DNA of 64,000 nt from Escherichia coli (GTDB lineage Bacteria > Pseudomonadota > Gammaproteobacteria > Enterobacterales > Enterobacteriaceae). How positions within the stretch are numbered: the stretch's first letter is position 1; each line of letters starts with the position of its first letter. Below the pieces are notes generated by a model. That model had not been told where the DNA came from and made no database searches. It was given only the letters and a program-made list of their open reading frames with translations. Position numbers and translations under genes: made by a program. The stretch lies in NCBI RefSeq assembly GCF_024502345.1, contig NZ_JALDNN010000001.1. One strand, given 5' to 3'. Below are positions 40,983 to 46,140 of this stretch, piece by piece.

Positions 40983-41602
40983 GGCACTGGCTGCTGGCGC
41001 TGATTTGCTGGCTGTGTTGTGTTGTTGCCCATAGCGAAATGCTGAATGTCGAACAATCCGGGCTGTTTCGCGCCTGGTTTGTACGCATTGCACAAGAACA
41101 GCTCCGCCAGGGGCCAAGTCCACGTTGGTATCAGCAGGATTGTGCGGGCCTGGTGCGATTTGCGGCGAACGAGACGCTGAAAGTTCACGACAGTAAATGG
41201 CTAAAAAGTAACGGTTTATCTAGCCAGTATTTGCCGCCAGAGATGACGCTAACACCTGAACAGCGTCAACTGGCGCAAAACTGGAATCAGGGGAACGGGA
41301 AAACCGGCCCCTACGTGACCGCGATTAATTTGATTCAGTACAACAGCCAGTTTATTGGCCAGGACATAAACCAGGCGCTGCCTGGCGATATGATTTTTTT
41401 CGATCAGGGCGATGCCCAGCACTTAATGGTCTGGATGGGGCGTTACGTCATCTACCACACCGGAAGCGCCACGAAAACTGACAACGGAATGCGCGCAGTC
41501 AGTCTGCAACAACTTATGACATGGAAGGACACCCGATGGATACCCAACGATTCCAATCCCAATTTCATTGGCATTTATCGTTTAAATTTTCTGGCGCGAT
41601 AG
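40979..41602 (+). CDS. yfaT: YfaT, DUF1175-like secreted protein (207 aa)
   Basis: Start [20 protein letters not shown] (signal peptide); coupled to yfaA and overlapping the yfaS 5' end. Confidence 0.85.
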
Positions 41603-44600
41603 CAGCGTGCTTGTCCCTGTCTCTTGTGGGAACAGGGCTTGCTAATGCTGATGATTCGCTTCCTTCCAGCAACTATGCGCTGCCCGCCGGGGGAACATTC
41701 TTTTTGCTCGCTGACAGCAGTTTTAGCAGCAGTGAAGAGGCGAAAGTGCGACTGGAAGCTCCGGGGCGTGATTATCGGCGCTATCAGATGGAAGAGTACG
41801 GCGGCGTGGACGTTCGCCTGTATCGTATTCCTGACCCGATGGCATTTTTGCGCCAGCAGAAAAACCTGCATCGCATTGTGGTGCAACCGCAATATCTGGG
41901 CGACGGGCTGAACAATACGCTGACCTGGCTGTGGGATAACTGGTACGGCAAATCTCGCCGCGTGATGCAGCGTACTTTCTCTTCTCAGTCACGGCAGAAT
42001 GTGACTCAGGCATTACCCGAATTACATCTCGGCAATGCCATTATTAAACCTTCCCGTTATGTACAGAACAACCAGTTTTCCCCGCTGAAAAAATATCCCC
42101 TGGTGGAACAGTTCCGTTATCCACTATGGCAGGCTAAACCGGTCGAGCCGCAGCAAGGGGTAAAACTGGAAGGCGCATCCAGCAATTTCATCTCGCCGCA
42201 GCCGGGTAACATTTATATTCCTCTCGGCCAACAAGAGCCGGGACTGTACCTCGTCGAGGCGATGGTTGGTGGGTATCGGGCGACGACGGTGGTGTTTGTT
42301 TCCGATACCGTGGCGCTTAGCAAAGTGTCAGGCAACGAGCTTCTGGTGTGGACCGCGGGTAAAAAACAGGGTGAAGCGAAGCCCGGCTCAGAGATCTTGT
42401 GGACTGACGGTCTTGGCGTGATGACCCGCGGTGTGACCGATGACAGCGGTACCTTGCAGTTACAACATATATCGCCAGAACGTTCATACATTCTGGGTAA
42501 GGATGCTGAAGGCGGTGTTTTTGTCTCCGAGAACTTCTTCTACGAAAGCGAAATCTACAACACCCGCTTGTATATTTTTACCGATCGCCCGCTATATCGC
42601 GCAGGCGATCGTGTCGATGTTAAAGTGATGGGCCGCGAGTTCCACGATCCGTTGCATTCATCCCCCATCGTCAGCGCCCCGGCGAAGCTTTCGGTGCTGG
42701 ACGCTAACGGCAGTCTGTTGCAAACCGTCGATGTCACGCTGGATGCGCGCAATGGCGGGCAGGGAAGTTTCCGCCTGCCAGAAAATGCCGTTGCCGGAGG
42801 TTATGAGTTACGTCTTGCTTACCGCAATCAGGTCTATAGCAGCAGTTTTCGCGTGGCAAACTACATCAAGCCACATTTCGAGATTGGTTTAGCTCTCGAC
42901 AAAAAAGAGTTCAAAACTGGCGAAGCGGTCAGCGGCAAACTGCAACTGCTCTACCCGGATGGCGAGCCGGTAAAAAATGCCCGCGTGCAGTTAAGTTTGC
43001 GCGCTCAGCAATTATCAATGGTCGGTAACGATTTGCGTTATGCCGGACGTTTCCCCGTGTCGCTGGAAGGCAGCGAAACGGTGTCCGACGCCAGCGGTCA
43101 TGTGGCGTTAAATCTCCCCGCCGCCGATAAACCGAGCCGTTATTTGTTAACCGTCTCCGCCAGTGACGGCGCGGCGTATCGTGTCACCACCACCAAAGAG
43201 ATCCTCATTGAACGCGGTCTGGCGCATTACTCATTAAGTACTGCCGCACAATACAGTAATAGCGGCGAGTCGGTTGTGTTCCGTTATGCCGCGCTGGAAT
43301 CTTCAAAACAGGTTCCTGTTACGTATGAATGGTTGCGTCTCGAAGACCGCACGAGCCATAGCGGAGAGCTACCGTCAGGCGGCAAATCCTTTACCGTCAA
43401 TTTCGCTAAACCTGGCAACTACAATCTGACATTACGCGATAAAGACGGCTTAATTCTCGCTGGGTTAAGTTATGCCGTCAGCGGTAAGGGCAGCACGGCG
43501 CATACGGGTACGGTAGATATCGTGGCGGATAAAACGCTGTACCAGCCAGGCGAAACCGCGAAGATGCTGATTACCTTTCCGGAGCCAATTGATGAAGCAT
43601 TATTGACGCTGGAACGCGATCGCGTGGAACAGCAGTCGCTGCTTTCGCATCCGGCAAACTGGCTAACGCTACAACGTTTAAACGATACCCAGTATGAAGC
43701 CCGGGTTCCAGTGAGCAATTCCTTTGCGCCTAACATCACTTTTTCGGTGCTGTATACCCGTAATGGTCAGTACAGTTTTCAGAACGCCGGGATCAAAGTT
43801 GCCGTTCCTCAGCTTGATATCCGGGTGAAAACGGACAAAACCCATTACCAGCCTGGTGAACTGGTCAATGTCGAATTAACCTCGTCGCTGAAAGGTAAAC
43901 CTGTTTCTGCGCAGCTAACGGTAGGCGTGGTCGATGAAATGATCTACGCGCTGCAACCAGAAATCGCGCCGAATATCGGCAAATTTTTCTATCCGCTGGG
44001 GCGTAACAATGTGCGTACCAGCTCCAGTCTGTCGTTTATCAGCTACGACCAGGCGCTCTCCAGCGAGCCGGTTGCGCCTGGCGCAACTAACCGCAGCGAG
44101 CGGCGAGTAAAAATGCTTGAACGTCCACGGCGTGAAGAGGTGGATACCGCGGCATGGATGCCGTCACTCACAACCGATAAACAAGGCAAAGCGTATTTCA
44201 CGTTCCTGATGCCTGATTCGTTAACCCGCTGGCGTATCACCGCGCGTGGGATGAACGGCGACGGGCTGGTCGGGCAGGGGCGTGCTTATCTGCGTTCGGA
44301 AAAAAATCTCTACATGAAGTGGAGTATGCCAACGGTGTATCGCGTGGGCGACAAACCGGCGGCAGGACTGTTTATCTTCAGTCAGCAGGATAACGAACCG
44401 GTGGCGCTGGTGACTAAATTTGCAGGCGCTGAGATGCGCCAGACGCTGACGCTGCACAAAGGGGCGAATTATATTTCGCTGACGCAGAATATTCAGCAAT
44501 CTGGCTTGTTAAGTGCAGAACTGCAACAAAATGGGCAAGTGCAGGACAGCATTAGCACAAAACTGTCTTTTGTGGACAACAGCTGGCCCGTTGAACAGCA

Positions 44601-46140
44601 GAAAAATGTCATGCTCGGCGGTGGCGAGAACGCGCTGATGTTGCCCGAGCAGGCGAGTAATATCCGGCTACAAAGTAGTGAAACGCCGCAGGAGATTTTC
44701 CGCAACAATCTTGATGCGTTAGTCGATGAACCGTGGGGTGGGGTGATCAACACCGGTAGCCGTCTGATCCCGCTCAGTCTCGCCTGGCGTTCGCTTGCCG
44801 ATCATCAAAGTGCCGCCGCTAACGACATTCGCCAGATGATTCAGGATAACCGTCTGCGGCTGATGCAACTGGCGGGGCCCGGAGCGCGCTTTACCTGGTG
44901 GGGTGAAGATGGCAATGGTGACGCCTTCCTTACGGCATGGGCATGGTACGCCGACTGGCAGGCCAGCCAGGCGCTCGGCGTAACGCAACAAACGGAATAC
45001 TGGCAGCATATGCTCGACAGTTATGCCGAGCAGGCAGATAACATGCCGTTATTGCATCGGGCGCTGGTGCTGGCGTGGGCACAGGAGATGAATCTGCCGT
45101 GCAAAACGTTGTTGAAAGGGTTGGATGAAGCTATCGCCCGGCGCGGAACTAAAACTGAAGATTTCTCTGAGGAAGAGCCCCGCGATATCAATGACAGCCT
45201 GATCCTCGATACACCGGAATCTCCACTGGCAGATGCGGTGGCAAACGTCTTAACCATGACGTTGCTGAAAAAAGCGCAGTTGAAGTCCACGGTGATGCCA
45301 CATGTTCAGCAATATGCGTGGGATAAAGCGGCAAACAGCAATCAGCCGCTGGCGCACACGGTTGTGCTGCTCAATAGCGGGGGCGACGCTACCCAGGCGG
45401 CTGCTATTTTAAGTGGTTTGACCGCTGAGCAATCTACTATTGAGCGCGCGCTGGCCATGAACTGGCTGGCGAAATATATGGCGACAATGCCTCCAGTTGT
45501 TTTGCCTGCGCCTGCGGGCGCATGGGCCAAACATAAGTTAACTGGAGGGGGCGAATACTGGCGTTGGGTTGGTCAGGGCGTGCCGGACATTCTCTCTTTT
45601 GGTGACGAATTATCGCCGCAAAATGTGCAGGTCCGCTGGCGTGAACCGGCAAAAACGGCTCAACAAAGTAACATTCCGGTGACCGTTGAACGCCAGTTGT
45701 ATCGGCTTATCCCCGGTGAAGTAGAGATGAGCTTTACTCTGCAGCCGGTGACCAGCAATGAGATTGACAGCGATGCGCTGTATCTCGATGAAATTACGCT
45801 TACCAGCGAGCAGGATGCAGTTCTGCGCTATGGTCAGGTGGAAGTACCGCTCCCGCCGGGAGCCGACGTTGAGCGCACAACATGGGGCATTTCAGTCAAT
45901 AAACCCAACGCCGCGAAACAGCAGGGGCAATTGCTGGAAAAAGCGCGTAATGAAATGGGCGAACTGGCCTATATGGTGCCGGTGAAAGAACTGACGGGAA
46001 CGGTCACTTTCCGCCATTTGCTGAGCTTCTCGCAAAAAGGGCAATTCGTTCTGCCTCCTGCTCGTTATGTGCGTTCCTATGCACCTGCGCAGCAAAGTGT
46101 TGCGGCAGGGAGCGAATGGCCCGGGATGCAGGTGAAATAA
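41536..46140 (+). CDS. yfaS: YfaS, alpha-2-macroglobulin-family protein lacking a thioester motif (about 1534 aa), intact
   Basis: Single uninterrupted 1539-codon ORF (41521..46140); start set at the second ATG (MDTQRFQ...) giving a signal-peptide-like N-terminus ending ...GLANA; only two Cys after the start and no CxEQ thioester motif. Confidence 0.88.

Follow-up and report, generated by a model that had tools for sequence, protein, structure and literature searches.

A normal, unbroken yfaS gene in Escherichia coli, probably encoding a MagD-like type II alpha-2-macroglobulin

The yfaS frame and its operon

The window, a stretch of 64,000 nucleotides from the Escherichia coli contig NZ_JALDNN010000001.1 (assembly GCF_024502345.1), contains the genes yfaA-yfaT-yfaS-yfaQ-yfaP, which overlap or abut one another (Table 1). 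The central gene of this five-gene envelope operon, which corresponds to magB-C-D-E-F, is yfaS, and all five products carry predicted N-terminal export or anchor sequences. The yfaA gene is intact at 1689 nt, the same as in K-12, and its product has a hydrophobic N-terminal membrane anchor; the C-terminus of YfaT is conserved from E. coli to Pseudomonas. The order DUF2138-MagC-A2M-DUF2300-YfaP_C is kept in eight loci of other genera, including Superficieibacter, Serratia, Yersinia and Pseudomonas. Unlike P. aeruginosa, where MagA is a partner of MagD, E. coli has a five-gene operon that lacks magA, as do all the Enterobacterales loci seen.

The open reading frame listing and the translation bear out the uninterrupted yfaS claimed in an earlier note on this DNA: positions 41521-46140 of the plus strand form a single open frame of 1539 codons plus a stop, with the closest in-frame stop on the 5' side at 41479-41481. 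The probability of 1539 open codons arising by chance is (61/64)^1539, about 1e-32. The second in-frame ATG, at 41536, yields the 1534-aa protein whose numbering is used below. The note had also counted two cysteines, neither of them in a CxEQ context, and the translation agrees: the residues are 30 and 1194 of the 1539-aa form (C25 and C1189 of the 1534-aa form), and the C-x-E-Q thioester motif is absent across the entire 1539-aa translation. A sequencing-error frameshift in the assembly, which the note had allowed for, was not found; over 41400-46200 the window and NZ_CP109924.1 (E. coli O125ac:H10 C 236-04A) agree at every position (100% identity), and the window yfaS matches five other E. 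coli alleles in length, without indels.

Table 1. Genes, signals and protein domains of the yfaS region of the window
Feature	Coordinates	Strand	Remarks
yfaA (MagB homologue, DUF2138)	39294..40982	+	first operon gene; NCBIfam PRK11410, 901 bits
yfaT (MagC homologue, PF06672/DUF1175)	40979..41602	+	signal peptide; start overlaps yfaA stop as ATGA
Five added codons, MEGHP	41521..41535	+	first in-frame ATG; mature protein unchanged
Shine-Dalgarno-like GGAAGGA	41523..41529	+	6 nt before ATG 41536; within yfaT codons W-K-D
yfaS CDS, preferred model	41536..46140	+	1534 aa; ORF and MagD/ECAM similarity
yfaS/yfaT overlap	41536..41602	+	67 nt, out-of-frame, yfaT 3' end
Predicted Sec signal peptide, aa 1-38	41536..41649	+	cleavage after A-N-A
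ATAG junction	41599..41602	+	yfaS Ile22 codon (ATA) and yfaT stop (TAG)
GTG, RefSeq/PGAP start	41626..41628	+	1504-aa model; inside signal-peptide hydrophobic core
MG2 domain, aa 344-440	42565..42855	+	Pfam PF01835, E 4.6e-19
A2M bait-region domain, aa 661-806	43516..43953	+	Pfam PF07703, E 3.7e-17
Bait loop core T-N-R-S-E-R-R, aa 851-857	44086..44106	+	equivalent to MagD A-N-R-S-E-R-G 847-853
A2M family domain, aa 871-953	44146..44394	+	Pfam PF00207, E 6e-12
All-helical TED equivalent, aa ~1051-1314	44686..45477	+	AF2 fragment residues 704-967; hhalign to ECAM TED
Degenerate thioester motif P-W-G-G1069-V-I-N1072-T-G-S	44731..44760	+	versus ECAM P-Y-G-C1187-L-E-Q-T-A-S
Codon 1368	45637..45639	+	TGG (Trp) in window; TGA in K-12, NC_000913.3 position 2330301
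Bacterial MG10 C-terminal domain, aa 1409-1517	45760..46086	+	Pfam PF17973, E 6.3e-5; absent from K-12 truncation
yfaQ (MagE homologue, tandem DUF2300)	46141..47790	+	signal peptide; GTG start abuts yfaS stop
yfaP (MagF homologue, YfaP_C/DUF2135)	47795..48571	+	signal peptide; last operon gene

The start codon and the export signal

The earlier note held that a long overlap with yfaT, of about 67-82 nt, leaves the start of yfaS uncertain. The overlap exists, yfaT ending at 41602, 67 nt beyond ATG 41536 and 82 nt beyond ATG 41521, and the annotation is indeed ambiguous, but the doubt is smaller than was claimed, since a putative signal peptide and a Shine-Dalgarno-like element favour 41536. Comparison of the candidate codons best places the start at this ATG, inside yfaT. 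It is the only candidate preceded by such an element, whereas ATG 41521 has none upstream and is missing in P. dryadis; a signal peptide is obtained from these two ATGs only. The overlap region as a whole shows no variation in six E. coli alleles. The Shine-Dalgarno-like element and ATG 41536 call for caution, because they sit in codons conserved for the sake of yfaT and so are not independent evidence. From either ATG, YfaS is predicted to be exported to the periplasm by the Sec route, with a 38-aa signal peptide whose hydrophobic maximum spans residues 18-36 and which ends in Ala38, a residue that does not vary across the family alignment.

Two alternatives bear on this N-terminus. The PGAP start is the GTG at 41626 in every E. 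coli record inspected, and a protein of 1504 aa beginning there would have no signal peptide and would avoid the long gene overlap. We consider this model very unlikely to be correct: the GTG lacks a preceding Shine-Dalgarno sequence and encodes Val31, within the hydrophobic stretch 18-36; in every homologue whose start is unambiguous, the aligned A-x-A closes a classical signal peptide; MagD is periplasmic (PMC3735191), and the remaining operon products are all predicted to be exported. Still less credible is a lipoprotein resembling ECAM, an alpha-2-macroglobulin anchored by its lipobox cysteine, with Cys25 lipidated as the anchor. Although the string I22-A-A-C25 formally fits the lipobox pattern [LVI][ASTVI][GAS]C and is identical in E. 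albertii, Cys25 (41608-41610) falls inside the signal peptide, the hydrophobic run ahead of it is only about 7 residues long (F18-A24), and the main hydrophobic segment continues past it to a textbook A-N-A cleavage site. Moreover, neither the position nor the context of this cysteine is kept among close relatives, where Superficieibacter reads SRLC, another relative (L005) reads KLPC and several others have no cysteine, and MagD has no cysteines and is anchored through MagB.

With the start at ATG 41536, a difference between Escherichia and its relatives becomes apparent at the yfaT stop. A survey of the junction found that relatives carry ATGA at the ATAG site, combining the magD start with the magC stop; this is the arrangement in Serratia, Yersinia, three Pseudomonas and a further relative, L019, whereas ATA, GTA or CTA stands there in the Escherichia subclade. 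Most likely, the ATGA-coupled start was lost in this subclade, and the signal peptide would be read in part from the +1 frame of the region coding for the YfaT C-terminus. If the upstream start is the true one, the export signal is missing from the 1504-aa RefSeq model and hence from the tens of thousands of entries that it stands for; its GTG start probably removes the signal peptide and would make localisation predictions misleading for a very large protein cluster.

The K-12 lesion and the conservation of yfaS

In K-12, yfaS (b4500, NC_000913.3) is an annotated pseudogene, marked "internal stop" by PGAP, as the earlier note had stated, but not a split one: current RefSeq gives a single continuous pseudogene interval, beginning at the equivalent of ATG 41536. 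The note had proposed an alignment to K-12 to place a frameshift there, and the ungapped comparison leaves none to place. The two genes are both 4605 nt long with zero indels, and K-12 has a single lesion, TGG>TGA at codon 1368, through which the last domain, MG10, is lost; of the possibility, raised in the same note, that K-12 yfaS is intact and identical in length, only the latter part holds. This TGA alone accounts for the functional difference between K-12 and the window. K-12 is a natural yfaS null, and anyone studying this presumed periplasmic defence system in E. coli has to use a wild strain or to restore the single base in K-12.

The yfaS locus was found in 5362 of 5426 complete genomes. 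The K-12 TGA haplotype, identified by a 59-mer match, occurs in 364 of the 5426, nearly all of them laboratory K-12 derivatives; ECONIH5 has the yfaS TGA too. The cluster of intact YfaS proteins comprises 40,950 member sequences, against ones to tens for truncated forms. Intact yfaS is the species norm, hence ordinary, and nothing about it is special to the window strain, so that the note's suggestion of a strain that retains the functional allele is right as to the intact allele and overstated otherwise, being true of nearly every non-K-12 E. coli. The normal, unbroken gene is real but ordinary, and the window itself is of little import; the type II class has been described before and partly characterised in P. 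aeruginosa.

The damage seen in some lineages raises the question of whether yfaS only looks intact and belongs to a functionless system that is decaying in E. coli. Independent lesions affect the operon by lineage, namely, the yfaS TGA in K-12 and ECONIH5, an internal stop in yfaQ of an O157:H7 strain, and yfaA frameshifts in ECONIH5 and NZ_CP109924.1; the protein database holds many truncated singleton yfaS products, and magA is missing from E. coli. Since several lineages carry such damage, the operon is dispensable in at least some niches. A relic nevertheless appears unlikely. Among six yfaS alleles, dN/dS is 0.06-0.15, and each is exactly 4605 nt long and free of indels at dS of up to 0.16, as befits an open frame kept by purifying selection; the near-universal presence of the locus and the predominance of the intact cluster argue in the same direction. 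In addition, some of the "frameshifts" may be assembly errors, yfaA being 1 nt shorter in NZ_CP109924.1 and intact in the window.

YfaS among the alpha-2-macroglobulins

YfaS has the macroglobulin set of MG domains, a bait-region domain, a helical TED and a C-terminal MG10; none of the curated NCBIfam models matches it. In the AF2 model (pLDDT 74.6), beta-sandwich domains are recognizable, with a C-terminal beta domain at 1330-1533, and the bait core, in which N852, R853, S854 and R856 are invariant, lies within a disordered, low-pLDDT loop at 802-874. Alignment of the thioester site by BLASTP, hhalign and family column counts indicates that the thioester Cys and Gln positions are filled by Gly1069 and Asn1072; Cys1189 (45100-45102) is located in the TED equivalent, away from this site.

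Its match to P0118 covers 98% of the length of YfaS at 54% identity; zero cysteines and the published ANRSERG at 847-853 identify P0118 as the MagD of P. aeruginosa. In P. aeruginosa, the bait region of MagD has been defined experimentally, and MagD traps protease non-covalently following bait cleavage (PMC5764988); it is periplasmic and inner-membrane associated, in a complex with MagA/B/F (PMC3735191), and protection against peptidoglycan-targeting T6SS effectors has been reported (PMC12663445). The searchable literature yielded no experiments on E. coli YfaS, and its localisation, partners and trapping are extrapolated here from MagD. Very probably, 41536-46140 is an intact wild-type yfaS encoding a type II A2M of 1534 aa, an orthologue of MagD with a presumed MagD-like action. 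By analogy, a precursor starting at ATG 41536, inside yfaT, would be exported by Sec and cut after A-N-A38; a foreign hydrolase would then cut the bait loop T-N-R-S-E-R-R, whereupon YfaS would trap the enzyme non-covalently, and trapping would keep host proteases or peptidoglycan-targeting type VI effectors from harming the periplasm and the peptidoglycan.

MagD (PA4489, magABCDEF operon) and YfaS have in common the domain order, the bait core N-R-S-E-R, the lack of Cys at the thioester position and the flanking genes (DUF2138/MagB, MagC, DUF2300/MagE, YfaP_C/MagF). They differ in that the motif is GVEQ in MagD and GVIN in YfaS, where the Gln is lost too, in the number of cysteines (zero versus two), and in that MagD starts at the ATGA junction with magC, whereas yfaS most likely starts 66 nt farther upstream inside yfaT. 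By clade, P. aeruginosa and several others have G-V-E-Q, and the Enterobacterales G-V-(I/V)-N. CVEQ is present in 31 of the 120 closest YfaS homologues; as judged from these sequences, a missing CxEQ does not define the whole MagD/YfaS orthologous group. The chances seem evenly balanced that YfaS marks the last stage of a decay by steps within one orthologous mag family that is not uniformly thioester-less, with the Escherichia start moved 66 nt upstream. CVEQ, GVEQ and GVIN form a natural series for studying trapping without a covalent bond, and should genuine thioesters form in the CVEQ orthologues, the textbook split between type I and type II (covalent and non-covalent) is a trait of lineages, not of families. 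Many pseudomonad MagD orthologues (~55% identical, same operon, same synteny) keep an intact P-Y-G-C-V-E-Q.

The type I macroglobulins ECAM (YfhM) of E. coli and Sa-A2M of Salmonella have the same overall fold as YfaS. The structure prediction that the earlier note had suggested comparing with ECAM indeed has native ECAM (5a42, E 3e-45) as its best Foldseek match, along with the Salmonella A2M (4u48, E 1e-42), and full-length hhalign of YfaS with ECAM (Prob 98.4, E 5e-15) pairs C1187-L-E-Q with G1069-V-I-N within a common frame, P-[YW]-G-x-x-x-x-T-[AG]-S. However, the identity is only about 21%. ECAM combines the lipobox MLALAGC18, whose Cys ends a short signal peptide, with the thioester C1187-L-E-Q and covalent trapping, whereas YfaS combines a predicted Sec-type signal peptide with G-V-I-N, and its Cys25 lies in the middle of the hydrophobic segment. 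The genes also occupy different loci, yfhM adjoining pbpC in K-12 and yfaS being flanked by yfaT and yfaQ. A type I assignment for YfaS was rejected on these grounds, namely, no CxEQ, no pbpC neighbour and no conserved lipobox Cys.

The MG/TED architecture is also common to human A2M, A2ML1, CD109 and C3/C5 and to insect TEP1. Foldseek matches of YfaS to these eukaryotic thioester proteins have E values of 1e-30 to 1e-37 at 11-14% identity, and the direct sequence matches to C5 and CD109 are weak. They are secreted and serve in host defence; most have a thioester, and C5 is naturally thioester-less.

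The intact yfaS frame and its state in other strains

The yfaS frame opens after a TGA and continues for 1539 aa in the ORF listing; its translation contains no internal stops. The factual elements of the earlier note are all correct: one open frame, two Cys residues (C25 and C1189 in the numbering of the 1534-aa product), no C-x-E-Q anywhere in the YfaS sequence, and an overlap with yfaT of 82 nt or 67 nt if the start is ATG 41521 or ATG 41536, respectively. The gene is intact, as is ordinary in the wild type, and both the gene and its family are known. An antisense ORF opposite the yfaS 5' end is probably a chance frame, and no evidence of its being a gene was found. 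K-12 has the atoSC-atoDAEB cluster between yfaP and rcsC; this cluster is missing here, and the direct yfaP-rcsC junction is common to 1537 of the 5426 complete E. coli genomes.

Coordinates of features in the yfaS region (window positions, unless a locus or aa is indicated) and in related loci
Feature	Position	Strand	Remark
gyrA	36518-39145	+	E. coli chromosomal segment; genes in the order listed
yfaA		+	
yfaT	end 41602	+	
yfaS	41536-46140	+	
yfaQ		+	
yfaP		+	
rcsC		+	
TGA ahead of yfaS frame	41479-41481		
yfaS open frame	41521-46140	+	
Candidate in-frame yfaS starts	41521, 41536, 41611, 41626	+	ATG, ATG, TTG, GTG
yfaT-yfaS junction	41599-41602		ATAG; ATAA, GTAA, CTAA in nearest relatives
ATGA junctions	L006:7064-7067, L007:7064-7067, L009:6647-6650, L010:7001-7004, L019:1501-1504		related loci, for comparison
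Antisense ORF	41575-41892	-	105 aa, TTG start
Bait core	44086-44106		aa 851-857
Site of K-12 stop	45637-45639		codon 1368, TGG here
yfaP-rcsC intergenic region	48572-48845		
CVEQ motif	L011:10151-10180		P. citronellolis magD; also proteins P0063, P0068-P0078, P0099, P0107 and others
MG2	aa 344-440		Pfam
A2M_BRD	aa 661-806		Pfam
A2M	aa 871-953		Pfam
bMG10	aa 1409-1517		Pfam

In K-12, yfaS (b4500, NC_000913.3) is annotated as one pseudogene interval (2329798-2334402, 4605 nt), and the PGAP-annotated MG1655 record flags the gene with 'internal stop'. Ungapped comparison with the equally long yfaS of the window reveals 66 substitutions and no indels, and exactly one premature stop is present in the K-12 gene, where codon 1368 is changed from TGG to TGA. 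Because the two alleles are of equal length, without indels and with a single TGA, the K-12 lesion is a nonsense mutation and not a frameshift. The earlier note was thus right in calling K-12 yfaS a pseudogene, but the frameshift that alignment to K-12 was to locate does not exist. The TGA cuts off the last 167 residues, the MG10 domain among them (bMG10 in Pfam; beta domain 1330-1533 in the structural model). Downstream of the stop, no excess of replacement changes was seen and no relaxed selection was detectable, with omega values of 0.07-0.30 that come from very few sites and resemble those of non-K-12 comparisons, which suggests that the mutation is recent. The premature stop is a UGA followed by C (equivalent of window 45637-45642), in place of a Trp codon. 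UGA-C is a leaky context, and read-through by the near-cognate tRNA-Trp would restore the original residue, so that small amounts of full-length YfaS may be produced in K-12.

The intact allele is not unusual in E. coli. The 4.8-kb region is present at a coverage of at least 80% in 5362 of the 5426 complete genomes, whereas a 59-mer carrying the K-12 TGA has an exact match in 364; among the matches listed are MG1655, W3110-type strains, DH5alpha, DH1, C600, J53, NCM3722 and other laboratory strains of that kind. At least one apparently non-laboratory strain, ECONIH5 (5.1 Mb), also has the K-12-type TGA. The intact-allele protein cluster comprises 40,950 member sequences, and truncated forms are singletons or number in the tens. 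Six alleles from different lineages are each 4605 nt long, with pairwise dN/dS of 0.06-0.15 (dS up to 0.16); yfaS is therefore under purifying selection.

Lesions were observed in other genes of the operon as well: O157:H7 strain 9234 has an internal stop in yfaQ, and ECONIH5 has a yfaA frameshift along with the yfaS TGA. The mag/yfa system seems to have been lost repeatedly but sporadically, through different genes in different lineages. A broken yfaA was suspected also in the present strain, from a 'frameshifted' flag in the 100%-matching record NZ_CP109924.1, and was rejected: yfaA in the window is intact (562 aa). NZ_CP109924.1 lacks one A at window 39814, within yfaA, and differs over 11.8 kb by 1 indel and 2 mismatches; the missing base in yfaA reflects an assembly error there or else a mutation of very recent date.

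The yfaS start codon

The start of yfaS is placed, with good confidence, at ATG 41536, as judged from the nucleotide and protein sequences. A purine-rich tract, GGAAGGA, stands ahead of this codon at a 6-nt spacing and has no counterpart at the other candidate starts; the K-12 pseudogene interval begins at the equivalent of this ATG. In the N-terminal region, hydrophobicity over 19-residue windows peaks at residues 18-36, and the hydrophobic segment ends with A-N-A38, followed by D-D-S-L-P, where Ala38 is invariant in the family. Lys17, the only positive charge beside the hydrophobic core in E. coli, is encoded within the overlap with yfaT. ATG 41521, which would yield the same mature protein, is a minor alternative: it lacks a Shine-Dalgarno sequence and is missing in P. 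dryadis.

RefSeq/PGAP places the start at GTG 41626 (1504 aa) in every E. coli record inspected. This codon is Val31, in the middle of the hydrophobic segment, so that the RefSeq product would open within it (first 10 residues not shown); such a product could not be exported and would be predicted to be cytoplasmic. The homologous MagD of Pseudomonas aeruginosa is periplasmic (PMC3735191), and all four other operon products carry signal or anchor sequences. GTG 41626 is an unlikely start, and the 1504-aa form (WP_060616359.1, in cluster P0003 with its 40,950 members) probably reflects a start site that is systematically mis-called.

An ATGA shared by the stop of magC and the start of magD, followed by a classical signal peptide, occurs in Serratia, Yersinia, P. 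dryadis, P. aeruginosa, P. citronellolis and the related locus L019; in locus L017, an ATG lies 6 nt past the magC stop. In the Escherichia subclade, the junction codon is ATA (E. coli and locus L018), GTA (Superficieibacter) or CTA (locus L005), and no canonical start is present between this codon and the hydrophobic core. The canonical coupled start has thus been lost in this subclade, where the ATGA junction is replaced by ATAG, ATAA, GTAA or CTAA. Initiation by termination-reinitiation at the junction codon itself (ATA 41599 in E. coli) is a less likely alternative: ATA initiates very poorly, and a product from it would have no charged n-region. As for ATG 41536, an in-frame ATG 67 nt inside magC/yfaT, with the frame open, is present in 11 of 11 loci, and both upstream ATGs (this one and another 15 nt before it) come from A-TGG where the C-terminus of MagC has conserved Trp codons (11-residue stretch not shown). 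Both were there before as by-products of MagC coding and seem to have been taken into use once the ATGA start was gone. In E. coli the 67-nt overlap is invariant, but in the sample of six alleles so is sequence beyond it, and this invariance therefore lends weak support to dual coding.

Family, fold and the thioester site

A direct PDB sequence search missed ECAM (YfhM), the 'type I' alpha-2-macroglobulin of E. coli, and returned just marginal matches to complement C5 and CD109; establishing the relationship required profile alignment and a fold search. With hhalign, a 22-sequence family profile aligned with ECAM end to end (Prob 98.4, E 5e-15). A Pfam scan of YfaS, done in two pieces, detected four domains (see the table); in an NCBIfam scan of the five operon proteins, the sole match was YfaA (PRK11410), with none for YfaS. 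An AlphaFold2 model of residues 348-1534 (38-sequence alignment, mean pLDDT 74.6) consists of a row of beta-sandwich domains, a disordered loop (802-874), an all-helical domain (1051-1314) and a last beta domain. In the comparison with ECAM that had been proposed as a check, native ECAM (5a42, E 3e-45) was the best Foldseek match of the model, followed by Salmonella A2M (4u48, E 1e-42) and then by complement C5, A2ML1, TEP1 and CD109.

BLASTP and hhalign both pair P-Y-G-C1187-L-E-Q-T-A-S of ECAM with P1066-W-G-G1069-V-I-N1072-T-G-S of YfaS. With Gly in place of Cys and Asn in place of Gln at the homologous position, the inference that YfaS has no covalent thioester trap holds. Cys1189, which lacks conservation, is at another place in the helical domain, and Cys25 belongs to the predicted signal peptide. 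In the 120 closest homologues, the site reads GVIN in 39, GVVN in 9, GVEQ in 21 (P. aeruginosa MagD included), SVEQ in 1 and CVEQ in 31. The 48 GV(I/V)N proteins are from Enterobacterales, whereas the CVEQ carriers are pseudomonad MagD orthologues with an intact P-Y-G-C-V-E-Q-T-A-S; in P. citronellolis, such a magD is located in a syntenic magABCDEF operon beside gatCAB, as in P. aeruginosa. A neighbour-joining tree with ECAM as root places the Enterobacterales in a single GV(I/V)N clade and shows the pseudomonad CVEQ and GVEQ clades interleaved, which suggests that pseudomonads lost the Cys several times independently. Type II macroglobulins have been described as lacking the thioester motif (PMC3735191, PMC5764988); no statement on CVEQ retention in type II orthologues was found in the literature, which was incompletely covered.

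Comparison with MagD

The nearest characterised relative of YfaS is P. aeruginosa MagD, represented by P0118 (54% identity over 98% of the length), which has no cysteines and contains, at residues 847-853, ANRSERG, the published MagD bait sequence with the same numbering (PMC5764988). The YfaS bait core, T-N-R-S-E-R-R, lies within the disordered loop, and its N, R, S and R do not vary across the family. Between E. coli and Pseudomonas, N-R-S-E/D-R and the subsequent V-K-x-L-E-R-P-R-R-E are invariant or nearly so. In contrast to the hypervariable baits of eukaryotic A2Ms, such conservation may mean that the bait serves a specific cognate protease or a processing step and not a broad range of proteases.

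The order DUF2138, MagC, A2M, tandem DUF2300, YfaP_C is kept in Superficieibacter, Serratia, Yersinia and three Pseudomonas species, and the same five-gene order is found in three metagenome-assembly loci (62-76% identity). Together, fold, MagD orthology and operon order identify YfaS as the 'type II' bacterial alpha-2-macroglobulin described previously (PMC3735191, PMC5764988). Both macroglobulin types are present in E. coli (PMC5764988), and the literature search found no paper on E. coli YfaS.

In MagD, the protease cuts the bait loop and then stays stably held, non-covalently (PMC5764988); the protein contributes to survival under the peptidoglycan-targeting T6SS effectors VgrG3 and Tae1 (PMC12663445). 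By homology, YfaS would act in the same manner, and this is the best-supported mechanism for it because YfaS has in common with MagD its bait core, its set of domains and four out of five partners. The probable relocation of the start codon and the retention of CVEQ in relatives are small curiosities. The differences between the two systems could matter: Pseudomonas mag loci have, in front of the other genes, one extra YfaP_C gene, magA, that E. coli lacks, and the thioester position reads GVIN in YfaS and GVEQ in MagD.
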